Of a stretch of DNA of 64,000 nucleotides, positions 1-13,296 are shown in pieces. Numbering within the stretch: position 1 is the first letter of the stretch; every line of letters starts with the position of its first letter. The notes under the pieces are model-generated. The model was not told the origin of the DNA. It searched no databases and worked only from the letters and a program-made list of their open reading frames with translations. The stretch comes from Candidatus Bathyarchaeota archaeon (lineage in GTDB: Archaea > Thermoproteota > Bathyarchaeia > Bathyarchaeales > DTEX01), in contig JAGTRG010000001.1 in the NCBI GenBank assembly GCA_018396435.1, forward strand, positions 9,659 to 73,658, read 5' to 3'. A program made the position numbers and the translations under genes.

Positions 1-924
1 AGCGGCGTAGATTTGTTGATCCACCAAATACTTGTTAATAGCTTACTGCCGAGGGAGAAGTCTGGTTTAGGTGGCAAAAGTATCTACATATACTGTGGAA
101 ATTATAGGCGGGAAAGAACAATGCTGGACACCCGCGCTCTAACGTACCTAGTGAAGGCTGAGAATATGGACCCGACTAAGGCGCTGGACAAAATTTATGT
201 GATATGCAACTTCTCCGAAGACCAGCAGGAACAAGTCTTCAAAGACTTGCTGGATCTCCTAAGGAGGGATTCCGAGATTAAGCTCGTTGCGGTTCACAAT
301 ATTGCCAAACTCTTCACCTCGAATAATGGGGCGAGAAACGTGAATGCTGGAGAGAGGATAATGCGCCTGCAAAGGGTTATCCACCAAATATGGCGTGTCT
401 GCGCCGAGAATAGCGTAGCCTTGGTGGCCTCCTGTAGGCCGTCTAAGAGTGGTAGCAACCGAATCCCAAAGCCCGAAGGGGGGAAATATCTCAAACATAA
501 GGCCTCAGTCATAGTTTACTTCAAGAGGAAGAGGAAAAATTTGGCTTCAGCCTTTCTCGTTAAGCACCCCAATCAAGCACCCAGAATGATTAATATTGAG
601 CTGATGGAAGGAGGTGATTTATTGGGCAGAATAACCCGTCCATTCAGAACCCTACTTCAAGAGGAGATGGATAACCTGAAGAGGACTTATAGGGAAGCGC
701 TTATGGATGCGAAGCGTAGAGAAGCATTCGACAGCCTCCTGCATACGTGGAGCAGCGAGCAGGGCGCTATGAGTTACGCTAGGGTTCCAACAGTTCTTGA
801 AGTAATGCTGCTCACCGCGATTGTAGACAACCGGAAACTCATCGAGGAAGCGCTTAAGCAAGTGAAAATGATGCGAGCCAAGCTTGAGGAGGTTGAGGCG
901 GGACTTCGGAAACTCTTAGAGTAG
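1..924 (+). CDS. RadA/RecA-superfamily paralog, 5' end cut by the window edge, with degenerate ATPase motifs and a ~100-aa helical C-terminal extension
   Basis: Frame 1 is open from nt 1 (SGVDLLIHQILVN...). The protein is colinear with the bona fide RadA in this window: SGKTQICMMLSITAQLP vs SGVDLLIHQILVNSLLP, IKLVVVDS vs IKLVAVHN, GGNIMAH vs GGKYLKH. Confidence 0.7.
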   Translation, partial: SGVDLLIHQILVNSLLPREKSGLGGKSIYIYCGNYRRERTMLDTRALTYLVKAENMDPTKALDKIYVICNFSEDQQEQVFKDLLDLLRRDSEIKLVAVHNIAKLFTSNNGARNVNAGERIMRLQRVIHQIWRVCAENSVALVASCRPSKSGSNRIPKPEGGKYLKHKASVIVYFKRKRKNLASAFLVKHPNQAPRMINIELMEGGDLLGRITRPFRTLLQEEMDNLKRTYREALMDAKRREAFDSLLHTWSSEQGAMSYARVPTVLEVMLLTAIVDNRKLIEEALKQVKMMRAKLEEVEAGLRKLLE

Positions 925-940
925 GGGGAGCATAGGGTTT

Positions 941-3130
941 ATGAAGCAAACACGAGGATGGCTTCTAGACGTAAATGTTGCGGGGAGCGAAGCGGTCTTA
1001 TGGCTGAAGGCTGAGGACGGAGACGTCATTCGTTTAACCGATAAGTATAGGCCCAGCTTCTACATCAAGCCTAAAGACGCCTCCGAGATTGAACGTTTAG
1101 CAGCGATGTTAATCAACCATCCAAATGTGGTGGGCGTTAAATGCGAGAGTAAATACGCATCCCTAAGCTCGAAGAAAACCAGGGTCTTACACGTCCATGT
1201 TGATTCCACAAAGAAATACAGGAGGGTTCTGAGAGACATGGCGGAGGACAGCGGCGTAGAAGCCCTCTACAACGTTGATCTCCTTCATGTTCAATGGTAT
1301 CTCTTCCGCAAGGATCTCCCGCCGACAAGCAAGATACATGTTTCCTACAATGAAAGGAATGAACTGGCGCATTTAGAAGTTATTGATGACGGCCTAGAAG
1401 TTCAGCCGCCCCCATTCACAAGCATAATATTTGACATTGAAATATCAAGCGGGAAACTCACTCCAGACGTGAACATGGATCCCATCTCGAAGATAGGCAT
1501 CTTCGATGAGCATCTGAACCCAATTAAATCATTTGGGGGCGACGAGAAAAACCTGCTCCATGAATTTTCGGAGTACATTAGAAGTTTAAACCCAGACTTT
1601 TTAATTTCTGAGGGCGTTGATGAGAAGATAACCTATGTTTTAGAGAGAGCTAGGATTATGGAATTAAATTTAGAGGTTAGCAGAGAAAATGTTGATTTCT
1701 TAAAACTAAAGAAACTTTTACCGTACGCGCATAGAGGCAGAGTCCTCCTCGATCTTGAAACATTTCTATCGATCGGTATAGCCGGGGTTACTGAGCTTTC
1801 GAGGTTCTCTTTGGTCCCTCCGGGTTTAGCGGCTAAGTGGCCCGCAGGTAGAATGATAGATGGTAGGCAGTGCTATGAAGCGATCAAGAGGGATGTGATT
1901 ATACCTCAATCCCGCGCCTTCTTCCGATTCGTGAAGACGGCTAAAGAAGTCATCTTCGGCGACAGAGGCGGCCTAATCCTATCCCCCAAAACAGGATTAC
2001 ATGAGAACGTTGGAGTGTTAGATTTTGAATCAATGTTCCCGCACATAATCGTAAAATATAATGTGAGTTACGAAACGGCTTCTCCTAACCGCGTCAGAAC
2101 TGACAAGGAAGGGTTCTTACCGCAATTGACTAGAAATCACTTGGAAAGGCGACTATACTTCAAACATTTGAAGAAGAAGTTCCCGGAGAACAGTCAAGAG
2201 TGGCTTTGGTGCGATCAGAGGCAGAAAGCGTTAAAGGGCATTTTAGTATGCATTTACGGTTATAGCGGCTGCTTCGCAAACCGATTTAACAATGTTGCCT
2301 GCTATGAAGAGATTAATCGAATTGCAAGGGAAATCCTCGTAGAAGCCATGAACATAGCCATGCGAGAAGGCTTTGAAGTGATATATGCGGACAGCGACAG
2401 CCTCTTCGTCAAGAAGGAAGGCGCATGCAGGGAAGACTTCGAGGATCTGGCTGGAAAAATCAGTGAGAAGACGGGTCTCCCAATAGCGCTGGATAAACAT
2501 TTCAAGTTTCTGGTTCTGCTGAAGCAGGAGTCCGATCCGAGCTTAGATGCCGCAAGGCGATACTTCGGGAAGCTAACTAACGGAGAGCTCTTCTATAGGG
2601 GCATTGAGCTCCGCCGACACGACTGCCCAACATTCATCAAGAGGTTCGAGACGAGGCTCATGGAAATCCTATTCGACGCCGAGAAAGCCGAGGAAATTTG
2701 GAAAACGCAATGTAAAAAGGCCTTTAACTACGTTGTTGAAACCTGCGATTTAATTCGCATGGGTAAAATCCCCTTAAACGAGCTAGTTATCAGTAAGAGT
2801 TTAAGGCGTCCGGTCAATAATTACCGCAGTCTCTTCCCCCACGTCGTTGCCGCCAAACAGCTAATTCAGATGGGTAAACAGCTTAAAAGCGGCGATACAA
2901 TAGACTTCATCTACGTGAATGCGGAACACAGGAACCCGTTTAGGCGAGTCACACCCGCCGAGGTTTTATGTGACCGCAACCAACGCTACGACCGAGACAA
3001 ATATGTTGAGATAATATTAGACGCGGCTGAAACAATCCTAGGAAACTTCGGCTTCAACAGGAGGAGCCTAGGATTTGGGATGAAACCGAGAAACTTTATC
3101 GAGGAGCTAAAACTCGAGATAGGCAGCTAA
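941..3130 (+). CDS. polB: Family B DNA polymerase, short (729 aa), PolB2-like minor type
   Basis: Exo I is IIFDIEIS. Pol motif A is LDFESMFPHII (DxxSLYPS-like). Motif B is KGILVCIYGYSG (KxxxNSxYG-like, N/S lost). Motif C is YADSDSLFV (YxDTDS-like). The ORF starts 16 nt after the preceding ORF. Confidence 0.85.
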   Translation: MKQTRGWLLDVNVAGSEAVLWLKAEDGDVIRLTDKYRPSFYIKPKDASEIERLAAMLINHPNVVGVKCESKYASLSSKKTRVLHVHVDSTKKYRRVLRDMAEDSGVEALYNVDLLHVQWYLFRKDLPPTSKIHVSYNERNELAHLEVIDDGLEVQPPPFTSIIFDIEISSGKLTPDVNMDPISKIGIFDEHLNPIKSFGGDEKNLLHEFSEYIRSLNPDFLISEGVDEKITYVLERARIMELNLEVSRENVDFLKLKKLLPYAHRGRVLLDLETFLSIGIAGVTELSRFSLVPPGLAAKWPAGRMIDGRQCYEAIKRDVIIPQSRAFFRFVKTAKEVIFGDRGGLILSPKTGLHENVGVLDFESMFPHIIVKYNVSYETASPNRVRTDKEGFLPQLTRNHLERRLYFKHLKKKFPENSQEWLWCDQRQKALKGILVCIYGYSGCFANRFNNVACYEEINRIAREILVEAMNIAMREGFEVIYADSDSLFVKKEGACREDFEDLAGKISEKTGLPIALDKHFKFLVLLKQESDPSLDAARRYFGKLTNGELFYRGIELRRHDCPTFIKRFETRLMEILFDAEKAEEIWKTQCKKAFNYVVETCDLIRMGKIPLNELVISKSLRRPVNNYRSLFPHVVAAKQLIQMGKQLKSGDTIDFIYVNAEHRNPFRRVTPAEVLCDRNQRYDRDKYVEIILDAAETILGNFGFNRRSLGFGMKPRNFIEELKLEIGS

Positions 3131-3136
3131 ATCCTC

Positions 3137-3151
3137 TCCGAACTTAAGAAT
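3137..3151. repeat. Direct repeat copy 1 (TCCGAACTTAAGAAT)
   Basis: Matches 3610-3624 at 14/15 positions. It lies 7 nt after the polB stop. Confidence 0.6.
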
Positions 3152-3255
3152 TTAACGCATCCAAATACATAAGCAATAAAACCTAGAGGCCTGAACAATT
3201 AAAATTGTTTTCGAAGAAATAGAGTTGTCTCTGTAAAAATACTTGAAGATTTTCG

Positions 3256-3465
3256 TCATTTATTTATGATTGCTGCTATTTCCTTAACTATTACTTTAGC
3301 TATGTTTTTTGCATTCATTATTTCTATCCCTGCCTCCCCCCTTAAGATTATACTCTACTCTAACATCCTCATCTAGCTCTTTGCTGTCAGCTATTGGTCC
3401 CTCTCTAATGATTATATTAGGATATCTTCCTCGGCATCGTAATTTATCCTCAATTTTCCTCCCAC
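3256..3465 (-). pseudogene. DUF2283-like small protein (antitoxin-like) interrupted by two compensating frameshifts
   Basis: Three frame segments read GGKLRINYDAEEDILI* / NIIIREGPIADSKELDEDVRVEYNLKGG / EAGIEIMNAKNIAKVIVKE...*. Together they match my recollection of the DUF2283 pattern (xIxYDxEaDxLyIxLxeGkiaeSeEl...DYdxxGxxvGIEIlnAs). The second shift is at a G6 run (3336-3341). Confidence 0.5.
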
Positions 3466-3498
3466 CCGTATCTGAATCCACCTTCCAGATTTAACCTT

Positions 3499-3625
3499 TC
3501 ACCTCACTTCCTCCTCAACCTCTCCAACCGGATAAACCGTGACAATATGCAGATAATCATCCCTTCTCCTGAAGATGACTACAAGGAAAATTTTGAGGTT
3601 ATATAAGGTTCCGAACCTAAGAATG
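3499..3625 (-). pseudogene. C-terminal fragment of a small toxin-like ORF (possibly DUF4258-like), no start codon
   Basis: The open frame ...LKIFLVVIFRRRDDYLHIVTVYPVGEVEEEVR* runs straight out of the tRNA 3' flank. It lies 33 nt upstream of the DUF2283-like gene. The family assignment is tentative. Confidence 0.3.
3610..3624. repeat. Direct repeat copy 2 (TCCGAACCTAAGAAT)
   Basis: Matches 3137-3151 at 14/15 positions. It ends 1 nt from the tRNA CCA end. Confidence 0.6.
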
Positions 3626-3767
3626 TGGCGGGCCCGCTGGGATTTGAACCCAGGATCTCCGGCTTTCATCGGTGTGCTTTCACCTTAGAGGGCCGACGCG
3701 CTATCCGTGCTACGCTTCCCGAATGAGCCTAATGGCGCCTTCTAGGCTAGGCCCATTTCACGGGCCC
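3626..3767 (-). tRNA. tRNA with two introns and encoded CCA. The predicted anticodon is UCU (Arg).
   Basis: Acceptor stem GGGCCCG/CGGGCCC. T arm CTGGG-TTCAAAT-CCCAG. D arm GCGT-AGCACGGATA-GCGC. Anticodon stem TCGGC/GCCGG. Intron 1 is 3716-3758 and intron 2 is 3665-3685; both are flanked by bulge-helix-bulge geometry. The spliced length is 78 nt. Confidence 0.8.
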
Positions 3768-4138
3768 AGTCAATATGCGTTCCCCAGCGGCCCATCTTAT
3801 TTCTTGATAGTTGTGTAATTTAAATTTGATGCTGAAGATAACCCCAAATTTCCGGAGGAACTAACTATAGGCATACGCCATGGCCATGTTGGGAGATATA
3901 ACGAGAATCCCGTTGGTAAGTCTTCCCGGCAAAAAGAAGTAATGGCAGATTTATCCTAGAAAACAAAGCGAAACCAGAATGATGCTTTACCCTCAAAATC
4001 TGGGGTTCTGCCAGCGGAAATATCTGACAACAGCTCTGGCTGAGATTGCTGTTAGCTATTAACTTAGTAGATTTGGGCGTGTTACGTAATCTTTTTTAGG
4101 GATCTTCTCAGTTTTTTGTTCTGAAAGCGTGATGTGGA

Positions 4139-4666
4139 ATGTGTGTGCTTGGTAAAGATAGGCTTCTTGAGCTCATAGAGAAGCATAGGTGCATATACCC
4201 GTTCGACCTAAACCTCCTGGATGGGGACAGCTACGTGCTTACTGTTAAGGAGGAGGTTACGCTTCAGTATCTGGAACATAGAAACCTGGTCTCCAACGAG
4301 ATTGTCTTCACGCTGCCGAACATTGTTGCTCATCTAACGGCTAAAAGCAGGTATGGACGCATGGGATTATCCTTCCTTAACGCCGCTAAGGTCCATAGCG
4401 GCTTCATTGGGAGGCTGGCCCTGGAAGTTGTAAACTTGAACAATGATAGGACGCCGATAACGATCAAGAGGGGCGACCCGTTCATGCACATAGAATTCAT
4501 AACAAGAATAGGTGAGGAGTCGCCTTACACGGGCGAATACCAATTCCAGTACATGACCAATGAAGAGATCAAAATGTACATACCGATACTGAGAAACGTA
4601 TTTAAAAACTACGAGGAGCTCTCCAAAATATGGTTCAAAGGCAAGGGCGAAGGCCGTCAAGCCTAA
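4139..4666 (+). CDS. dcd: dCTP deaminase/dUTPase-family protein
   Basis: AKSRYGRMGL...HSGFIGRLALEVVNLN...ITIKRGDPFMHIEF matches the dCTP deaminase core pattern. Confidence 0.65.
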   Translation: MCVLGKDRLLELIEKHRCIYPFDLNLLDGDSYVLTVKEEVTLQYLEHRNLVSNEIVFTLPNIVAHLTAKSRYGRMGLSFLNAAKVHSGFIGRLALEVVNLNNDRTPITIKRGDPFMHIEFITRIGEESPYTGEYQFQYMTNEEIKMYIPILRNVFKNYEELSKIWFKGKGEGRQA

Positions 4667-12133: not shown

Positions 12134-13084
12134 TTACTTATCTACCTCAGCGTCAACTATGCCCTTCTCATTTATCATGAAGTAGGCTTCCCTCTCAGGC
12201 AGGTATGGGCTGTCGATTATCCTCGCAACCCTCACGCCCTTTGAGCCCTTCCGGAGATAAACCCTATGTGTGCATGCATGAGCCATTATGTTTCCGCCAG
12301 CGGGCCTATTTGGGTCCCCTCCAAAGAATGAAGCCGGGTTGGATTGAACCTGATTCGTTACGACAACAGCGAGATTGTATGCTTCCGAAAGCCTAATCAG
12401 CTTATGCAGATACTGATTTAGCTTCTGCTGCCTATCTGAAAGGTTCTCCCGCCCAATATACTCGCCTCTGAAGTGGCTTATCATGCTGTCCACAACAACG
12501 AGTTTTATATTATTCTCCGGGCAGAGCATGAACAATCTGTCGATTAGTAGGCATTGATGGCTACTATTGTATGCCCTCGCAACAAATATGTTTCCGGCGG
12601 CATCCTTCGGATCAAGCCCCATGCTGGAGGCTATTTGATATACGCGTTCAGGCATGAATGTTCCCTCAGTGTCTATGAATGCAACCCTGCCCTCTAAGCC
12701 GCCCTTATCATATGGTAGCTGCGCAGTGATGGAGAGCATCATGCATATCTGAGTCTTACCGGAACCATACTCACCTATCAGCTCCGTTAAAGCCTGAGTT
12801 TCTATCCCGCCGCCAAGTATCTCATCAAGCTTTTTGCATCCCGTTGTACAGCGCCTCATGCTCTTCCTTCTTTCATAATACTCCTGAGCGGTTTTAAAGT
12901 CGGCAGAAATCATCTTACGGGCGGATTCCTGAATCTTAAGCACAGTGTTGAAGCCTAGATTCGTCTTCTCCATGATCTCAAGCGGCGGGGTGACTGCAAC
13001 AGCCTCTATAGTTGTGTAGCCCGCTGTCCTAAGCTTAGTTGCTATTGCCGATCCAACGCCATCCAGGGATTCCAGGTCTTCCAT
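12134..13084 (-). CDS. radA: DNA repair and recombination protein RadA
   Basis: HhH LDGVGSAIATKLRTAGY, Walker A GEYGSGKTQ, Walker B KLVVVDS. The ORF extends to 13102, but the MEDLESLDGVG start at 13084 lies 2 nt after the upstream ORF stop. Confidence 0.93.
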   Translation of the reverse strand: MEDLESLDGVGSAIATKLRTAGYTTIEAVAVTPPLEIMEKTNLGFNTVLKIQESARKMISADFKTAQEYYERRKSMRRCTTGCKKLDEILGGGIETQALTELIGEYGSGKTQICMMLSITAQLPYDKGGLEGRVAFIDTEGTFMPERVYQIASSMGLDPKDAAGNIFVARAYNSSHQCLLIDRLFMLCPENNIKLVVVDSMISHFRGEYIGRENLSDRQQKLNQYLHKLIRLSEAYNLAVVVTNQVQSNPASFFGGDPNRPAGGNIMAHACTHRVYLRKGSKGVRVARIIDSPYLPEREAYFMINEKGIVDAEVDK

Positions 13085-13086
13085 TA

Positions 13087-13296
13087 TCAGTAAGTCTCCC
13101 AATCAAAATTTTTTCTGGAAATTGTCTTCCAGCAGTCCCAGCATAGGGGGATGCGTTCACCCCTATACATTATATACAAGGCTATATCCGTGCTTTTGCA
13201 GTCGCCATTCCACGGGTTTGAGCACTTCTCCAATCCGAGGCTTACGCTGATGGATGTGATCCCTTCGGATTTAGGCTTATTCTTAAGTTTAACCAT
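13087..13296 (-). CDS. Small Cys-rich (zinc-finger-like) hypothetical protein
   Basis: 69 aa with CSNPWNGDC...CWDCW. Its stop is 2 nt from the radA ATG. No family was recognised. Confidence 0.35.
   Translation of the reverse strand: MVKLKNKPKSEGITSISVSLGLEKCSNPWNGDCKSTDIALYIMYRGERIPLCWDCWKTISRKNFDWETY

Follow-up and report, generated by a model that had tools for sequence, protein, structure and literature searches.

The closest described counterpart of the locus reported here is the PolB2 mutasome. Its genes, which encode an inactive RadA (iRadA), the small protein PPB2 and the family-B DNA polymerase PolB2, were described as a trio near orc1/cdc6 by comparative genomics in 2013-2014 (Makarova et al. 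2014, PMC4104785), and the trio was later modelled, fusions and internal Shine-Dalgarno (SD) motifs included (Timinskas, Timinskas & Venclovas 2025, PMC11791011). The AlphaFold models of the latter paper show PolB2, iRadA and PPB2 as a 1:1:3 complex: the iRadA pocket takes up a loop of PolB2 that imitates the oligomerisation motif of RadA, and one of the PPB2 arms extends to the DNA. The same paper presents PPB2 (arCOG07300) as a small (~90 aa) three-helix protein that has an "MGRT" arm with Arg3 and Arg9 and is predicted to trimerise as a coiled coil, and it presents Dpo2, the PolB2 of Sulfolobus islandicus, as a damage-induced enzyme that is needed for targeted mutagenesis and extends mispaired termini. 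Here we analyzed a 64,000-nucleotide stretch of a Candidatus Bathyarchaeota archaeon genome (contig JAGTRG010000001.1, positions 9,659 to 73,658 of the forward strand; "the window"), which opens within a RadA-like open reading frame (ORF) that is followed by a DNA polymerase gene. Very probably, this ORF encodes an iRadA-PPB2 fusion, that is, two of the three PolB2 mutasome subunits, and the next gene encodes the catalytic PolB2. The relevant features of the window are as follows.

1-924, plus strand: probable iRadA-PPB2 fusion gene, last 307 codons and stop (translation; 100% match to protein P0001).
1-606, plus strand: RadA/Rad51 core with inactivated ATPase, residues 49 to ~250 of the full protein (Pfam Rad51, profile, AlphaFold2 [AF2] and Foldseek).
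1-18, plus strand: degenerate Walker A remnant SGVDLL, Lys to Val and Thr to Asp (pairwise alignment, family census).
82-105, plus strand: IYIYCGNY in place of RadA FIDTEGTF (MAFFT census).
277-300, plus strand: degenerate Walker B IKLVAVHN for RadA KLVVVDS, Asp to His and Ser to Asn (alignment, census).
610-617, plus strand: putative internal SD motif GGAGGTGA in the coding frame, codons E-G-G-D (sequence reading).
622-624, plus strand: TTG, possible internal start at PPB2 residue 1.
622-924, plus strand: predicted PPB2 module, 100 aa, an arm and three helices, the last a long coiled-coil helix (hhalign, profile, AF2, DUF8156).
622-648, plus strand: predicted PPB2 N-terminal arm LGRITRPFR.
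925-940, plus strand: 16-nt spacer with GGGGGAG before the polymerase ATG.
941-3130, plus strand: likely PolB2-type family-B DNA polymerase, 729 aa (Pfam DNA_pol_B, 5mdn and ortholog alignments).
12134-13102, minus strand: canonical RadA (NCBIfam RadA equivalog, 430.8 bits against a cutoff of 259; intact GSGKT and VVVDS).

Frame 1 is open across positions 1 to 924 and ends with a TAG stop at 922-924; the polymerase ATG lies at 941, so the 16-nt distance between the two genes given in the preliminary description of this DNA is correct. That description had also called the frame intact for more than 300 codons. The window holds 307 of them, but its edge cuts the ORF, and the complete protein has 355 aa (P0001, from public assemblies of the same organism and 100% identical). 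Its first 48 codons precede window position 1; the 48 N-terminal residues and the DNA 5' of the gene were recovered from the short contigs L001-L003, with the gene start at position 1551 of L002. Public records annotate members of this family as "hypothetical" or "RadA"; the latter label, a product of annotation pipelines, is misleading for iRadA-PPB2 proteins.

The ORF had been proposed to align with RadA residue by residue, and several methods agree on this homology. Against the canonical RadA of the window, BLASTP gave 24% identity over 206 aa (E 5e-12). Pfam Rad51 matched the window fragment with an E value of 2e-11 and the full-length protein with 1.3e-19, and a profile of 32 family members matched Sulfolobus solfataricus RadA (2bke; E 7e-38). 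The AF2 model of the fusion protein (mean predicted local distance difference test score [pLDDT], 82) superposed on structures of RadA/RAD51 and matched RadA 2zud in Foldseek with an E value of 6.7e-20 over 252 columns. The N-terminal helix-hairpin-helix domain is lacking: in the alignment to S. solfataricus RadA, profile residue 3 is paired with RadA residue 71, and HHH_5, which the canonical RadA of the window does match, was not matched in the fusion protein by the Pfam scan. The protein reached neither the RadA equivalog level (NCBIfam NF003301, 71.5 against a cutoff of 259) nor that of RadB (TIGR02237, 40.1 against 172.4). The Pfam scan gave no KaiC match for the window protein (one relative matched at E 0.025), the NCBIfam ImuA model did not match the fusion protein, and PADLOC returned no defence-system match for iRadA. 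The HMM and structure searches that the preliminary description had proposed thus place the protein in the RadA/Rad51 fold, below the RadA and RadB cutoffs and with no KaiC match.

A family census was made from 93 full-length homologs (31-100% identity) of Bathyarchaeia, other Thermoproteota metagenome-assembled genomes (MAGs) and metagenomes, aligned with MAFFT. The position of the Walker A lysine is occupied by Val (60 sequences), Ile (22) or Leu (7) and by Lys in none, and that of the Walker A threonine is Asp in 90 of the 93. At the position of the Walker B aspartate there is His in 67 relatives, Arg in 20, Gln in 5 and Lys in 1; none has Asp. The positions equivalent to IDTEGTF carry the conserved replacements N, C, G, N and Y. 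The substitutions first read from the window (SGVDLL, IYCGNY and VAVHN) are therefore real and family-wide, and an offset alignment does not account for them, since the aligned orthologs likewise lack GxxGxGKT and hhhhD. Conservation of the replacement residues indicates a new constraint, not decay.

Conservation in the fusion protein is highest over the C-terminal ~100 residues. The preliminary description had seen in them a helical, heptad-like extension. The helices stand, but a mere heptad tail does not, since the segment corresponds to a domain, the precomputed Pfam family DUF8156 (PF26485). In the AF2 model, residues 252-260 are disordered and are followed by helices at 263-279, 285-305 and 313-354, the last of 42 residues. 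Across the family the arm follows the consensus [M/L]GRxT..FR, in which G2, R3 and F8 show no variation and at least 90% of members conserve T5 and R9; the spacing is MGRxT and not literally MGRT, as in stand-alone homologs. Comparison of the tail by hhalign with the MGRT proteins encoded next to PolB2 (loci L007-L016) gave a probability of 88% and an E value of 3e-6, in an alignment that runs end to end (columns 1-84 against 1-82). When the tail profile was searched against 1.84 billion representative proteins, it found 358 matches, many of which are stand-alone proteins of 80-130 aa that start with MGR[ILV]T, are matched from residue 1 and carry Arg3 and Arg9. By these profile comparisons, the tail is identified as a fused PPB2 (arCOG07300) module, a distinct domain and not a generic coiled coil. 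Our literature search found no mention of DUF8156, and the 64-kb window yielded no further gene for PPB2 or iRadA.

The gene that follows encodes a polymerase with intact motif A (LDFESMFP) and motif C (YADSDS, the DxD motif, in which the first Asp is not replaced), and its motif B is altered from KxxxN to KxxxV. In the exonuclease domain, exo I (FDIE) is kept and the exo II Asp is lost (NxxxFD reads EGVDE-KI). Polymerase residues 249-341 show no counterpart to 5mdn residues 256-400, where exo III lies; the missing segment that bears exo III amounts to ~50 residues relative to PolB3. The polymerase half is closest to the PolB3-like enzyme 5mdn of P. calidifontis (E 6.8e-55 overall). The N-terminal 367 aa align without large gaps to NIR87082.1, a listed Bathyarchaeota PolB2 (30% identity, E 7e-44); the score of the N-terminal region against 5mdn is 35.8 bits. 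Among the orthologs, DxD is changed to NVD in L012 and L013, and most of the exonuclease domain is missing in the L007-L014 clade. According to the sections of PMC11791011 used here, basal PolB2 enzymes of TACK archaea keep DxD and have a less decayed exonuclease domain. Since these keep DxD and the L012 and L013 orthologs have NVD, loss of DxD is typical of PolB2 but not obligatory, and the alignments suggest that the window polymerase is likely a basal PolB2.

Conserved linkage of the RadA-like gene to polB had been put forward as a test of the pseudo-ATPase reading. Related loci, cited by L numbers, were sought with a 14-sequence family alignment. The polymerase lies directly 3' of the fusion gene in the loci of 19 of 20 organisms (the window, 12 of 13 genome loci and 6 of 6 metagenome loci), and the two genes either overlap by 4 nt or are separated by 14-41 nt. 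In the window, the GGGGGAG within the 16-nt spacer suggests operon coupling. Between the window organism and the 80%-identical L004, the ratio of nonsynonymous to synonymous substitutions (dN/dS) is 0.13 overall; the core has a value of 0.11, the PPB2 part one of 0.19 and PolB2 one of 0.115. In addition, 96 homologs, down to 31% identity, have intact frames. The fusion gene is under purifying selection. Split fusion frames occur only in L008, L009 and L014, three MAGs from one project (isolate names MFD*). Because the frames of their close relatives in other assemblies (L007, L010 and L011) are intact, assembly errors are the likelier cause of the splits. Neither a dN/dS near 1 nor a wider disruption of frames, the signs by which decay was to be recognized, was found. 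The aligned orthologs, the dN/dS and the linkage to polB all favor the earlier view of a RecA-fold pseudo-ATPase that is linked to polB and kept as a scaffold or regulator, not decaying.

According to PMC11791011, iRadA-PPB2 fusions are enriched for SD motifs before the PPB2 part. The sequence just 5' of the first PPB2 codon in the window is AGGAGGTGAT, and the gap from the SD motif to the TTG is 4 nt. Start codons and SD motifs were compared over 19 loci from different organisms. The first PPB2 codon is ATG, or it is TTG in all 8 loci with Leu and GTG in both loci with Val at this position; the lone exception is an ATC in L012. By comparison, the fusion and polymerase genes of the window together have 116 Leu codons, of which only 10 are TTG. 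A GGAGG-type motif is found at the same position in L004-L006, L012, L015 and L017-L022 and precedes the PPB2 codon in every locus without a separate PPB2 gene, whereas the clade with an additional, separate PPB2 gene has a weak internal SD (AGTGAT). Initiation at the TTG at 622 would yield free PPB2 chains, and one fused and two free chains might complete the trimer. This comparison lends independent, sequence-level support to the published prediction that an internal ribosome-binding site and start codon supply free PPB2 from the same mRNA.

If the models for the known complexes carry over, iRadA would have a scaffolding role without enzymatic activity. It would receive a beta-alpha loop of PolB2 in the way that a RadA protomer receives its neighbour, and PPB2 would form a trimeric coiled coil that places one [M/L]GRxT arm in the PolB2-iRadA cleft beside DNA. 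The complex would then extend mismatched or damaged primer ends after DNA damage, as suggested by the genetics and biochemistry of S. islandicus Dpo2. The scaffold role, the docking and the arm placement are all taken from the AlphaFold models in the sections of PMC11791011 used here.

Several points weigh against this reading. Both DxD and exo I are retained in the polymerase, and the nearest match of its polymerase half is PolB3 (5mdn); its assignment to PolB2 rests on operon context, exonuclease decay and the N-terminal alignment. The homology between the tail and PPB2 rests on profile methods, and when the tail was compared with one stand-alone PPB2 by BLASTP, no alignment resulted. The internal SD could in part reflect a conserved Gly-Gly in the protein. 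In L016 (75-1567), the sole locus without a polymerase after the fusion gene, the next gene is a zinc-ribbon iRadA2 after a 237-nt gap. Finally, all of the physical interactions and the role in translesion synthesis (TLS) are transferred from Sulfolobus and from the published AlphaFold models.

With the PolB2 mutasome, as far as the cited sections of PMC11791011 and PMC4104785 describe it, the locus has in common an inactive RadA without its N-terminal domain; a PPB2 module with an MGR(x)T arm, Arg3 and Arg9; the gene order iRadA-PPB2-PolB2, tight coupling and internal SD of the fusion variant; an orc1/cdc6 gene nearby; and an exonuclease-decayed family-B polymerase, here in the DxD-retaining form seen in basal TACK archaea. 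Unlike the systems in those descriptions, the Bathyarchaeial family keeps a RadA-type F-x-x-[A/G] at the N-terminus, normally has a canonical radA just 5', includes an extra operon gene for an RPA-plus-Argonaute-like protein in many relatives and, in some, has a second, zinc-ribbon iRadA and a free PPB2. The Bathyarchaeial fusion also differs from them in having no evident C-terminal PCNA-binding motif; its C-terminus, inspected by eye, ends in the coiled coil. The concept of a dead RecA-family protein as a polymerase scaffold was already published in 2014 and 2025, and our analysis adds to the PolB2 mutasome a well-conserved Bathyarchaeial family (Pfam DUF8156 plus Rad51).

At its own C-terminus, the polymerase has a conserved motif, LGF..(K/R)xRNF[IL][DE]E[LIV][RK], at window positions 3089-3112 and in L007, L010, L011, L014 and L015. 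Read by eye in the orthologs, this motif does not fit the PCNA-binding pattern QxxLxxFF.

The arrangement also resembles the Escherichia coli Pol V mutasome (UmuD'2C-RecA-ATP), in which, according to the sections of PMC11791011 used here, a TLS polymerase sits on one protomer of a RecA-family protein through a filament-like oligomerisation motif and a small oligomeric subunit inserts its N-terminal arm near the active site. Pol V, however, is a Y-family polymerase, and its RecA is an active, ATP-needing recombinase taken from a filament, whereas the Bathyarchaeial locus encodes a dedicated, ATPase-dead paralog in one operon with a B-family polymerase. The archaeal RadB and the eukaryotic Rad51 paralogs (Rad55-57, Shu, BCDX2/CX3) are similar to iRadA in their core-only RecA fold and in possible interactions with filament ends. 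RadB and most Rad51 paralogs keep their Walker motifs, unlike iRadA, and no case of a PPB2 fusion or of linkage to a polymerase is known to us among them. The bacterial ImuA-ImuB-DnaE2 cassette likewise combines, within an operon, the genes for an error-prone polymerase and a RecA-like accessory protein; it differs in its C-family polymerase and its unrelated accessory subunits. To our knowledge, the PolB2 mutasome is the only multi-subunit B-family TLS polymerase of prokaryotes.

The N-terminus of iRadA keeps F-x-x-[A/G] followed by a helix (P0001 residues 3-7, encoded at L002:1557-1571). The motif aligns exactly with the polymerisation motif of RadA (F97-A100 in P. furiosus, F73-A76 in S. 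solfataricus); the Phe is present in 70 of the 93 relatives and a Gly or Ala at +3 in 80. Judged from this alignment, the motif could dock into RadA or into another iRadA. A canonical radA is found immediately 5' of the fusion gene, or one gene further, in 17 of 17 informative relatives.

In many relatives, a further gene separates radA from the fusion gene; it encodes a conserved protein of ~570 aa (570-576 aa) without a Pfam domain. This gene lies at L009:4280-5998, L007:1300-3009, L010:889-2607, L011:4283-5995, L017:2277-4004 and L019:690-2420 and is split in L008, L014 and L018. The N-terminal 200 residues match archaeal RPA/SSB models (NCBIfam, E 3.6e-19) with oligonucleotide-binding (OB) folds and a zinc ribbon, and the AF2 model of the protein (pLDDT 79) matches RPA of P. 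abyssi in Foldseek (E 2.7e-11). In the AF2 model, the C-terminal ~350 aa appear to resemble the MID-PIWI part of Argonaute (Foldseek, E ~1e-9, 320-410 columns), and one member of the family has a weak PADLOC PIWI match (E 1.3e-4). The window organism has only an internally deleted remnant of 81 aa at L002:1304-1549, just 5' of window position 1; a second remnant is found at L022:3761-4000. This RPA-plus-Argonaute-like protein is absent from the neighbours listed in PMC11791011.

In the window organism, radA appears to have moved out of the cluster orc1-wHTH-radA-iRadA-PolB2 (wHTH, winged helix-turn-helix), which is conserved with radA in place at L004:4689-5687. The nucleotide alignment of L002 with L004 breaks exactly at radA and its 313-nt spacer, in whose place there are 234 nt. 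The radA gene is now 11 kb away on the opposite strand, and the iRadA-PPB2-PolB2 unit stayed intact.

The F-x-x-[A/G] retained at the free N-terminus of the fusion, whose pocket is expected to hold PolB2, the adjoining radA and the RPA/Argonaute-like gene raise the idea that the Bathyarchaeial PolB2 mutasome is physically coupled to homologous recombination, which we consider unlikely. The complex would then dock on a RadA filament end or a D-loop, as a mock filament running from PolB2 through iRadA to RadA, and its task would be recombination-associated or guide-directed DNA synthesis and not only lesion extension. The motif, the adjacency of radA and the extra gene allow such a link to the RadA filament but do not demonstrate it.

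The same motif and the upstream radA in every informative relative would also suit a recombination mediator on RadA filaments, comparable to RadB, Rad55-57, the Shu complex or BRC repeats, that caps or nucleates filaments through its N-terminal F-x-x-[A/G] and has the polymerase as a mere neighbour. We regard this explanation as distinctly improbable, because the protein carries a fused PPB2, and this subunit is known from PolB2 operons alone; because the linkage to the polymerase, by a 4-nt overlap or a short spacer, is as tight as that to radA; and because in the window organism it was radA that moved while the iRadA-PPB2-PolB2 unit held together. A mediator activity is nevertheless compatible with the mutasome reading and may be an added function.

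In one subclade, which includes the window organism, the cluster is preceded by an orc1/cdc6 gene and a small wHTH gene, in agreement with both papers; this pair is also found 5' of the cluster in L004, L006, L012, L013, L015, L017 and L020. This arrangement could point to a replication-initiation or origin-regulation module that acts with Orc1/Cdc6, as an alternative, recombination-dependent initiation, a possibility raised by Makarova et al. (2014, PMC4104785, in the section used here). Such a role is very unlikely. The sections of PMC11791011 used here describe Orc1/Cdc6 paralogs as regulators of the DNA damage response in Sulfolobales and Dpo2 as a damage-induced TLS extender, and the L007-L014 clade has no orc1 beside the operon. 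A decaying radA duplicate with a fortuitously open frame has almost no chance of being correct: every catalytic motif is lost and frames are split in L008, L009 and L014, but the dN/dS of 0.13, the 96 intact homologs and the conserved replacements led us to reject the pseudogene reading, and the split frames, from MAGs of a single project with intact relatives, are more likely assembly errors.

The small gene between orc1/cdc6 and radA is always found at that place and encodes a winged-helix-like protein of 93-110 aa (L002:909-1199, L004:4320-4610, L006:4435-4716, L012:3995-4306, L013:1364-1690, L015:4388-4693 and L017:592-924). Its only Pfam matches are weak ones to DNA-binding N-terminal domains, and the protein is a candidate regulator of the cluster. 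In L008, the canonical radA is interrupted by an intein (2122-4270; LAGLIDADG_3, E 1.4e-17, and an intein splicing domain).

In one clade, a second, more divergent inactive Rad51-like gene lies right after PolB2 (L007:6139-7382, L008:9125-10392, L009:8953-10146, L010:5767-6753, L011:9125-10392, L014:9126-10375 and L016:566-1821). Its product has ~330 aa and an N-terminal CxxC...CxxC zinc ribbon. Where the sequence continues, the gene is followed by a stand-alone PPB2 of 84-91 aa that starts with MGRT. This clade is the same as that with the weak internal SD in the fusion.

Downstream of the polymerase, a probable intron-containing tRNA gene is found on the minus strand at window positions 3625-3770. 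ARAGORN reported no tRNA across the 64 kb, and Rfam at the gathering threshold reported nothing. Below that threshold, the Rfam tRNA model matched positions 3636-3718 (25.5 bits; cutoff, 29), where the anticodon loop bears a 25-nt insertion, and the T-arm and acceptor end, GGGTTCAAATCCCAGCGGGCCCGCCA, are readable.

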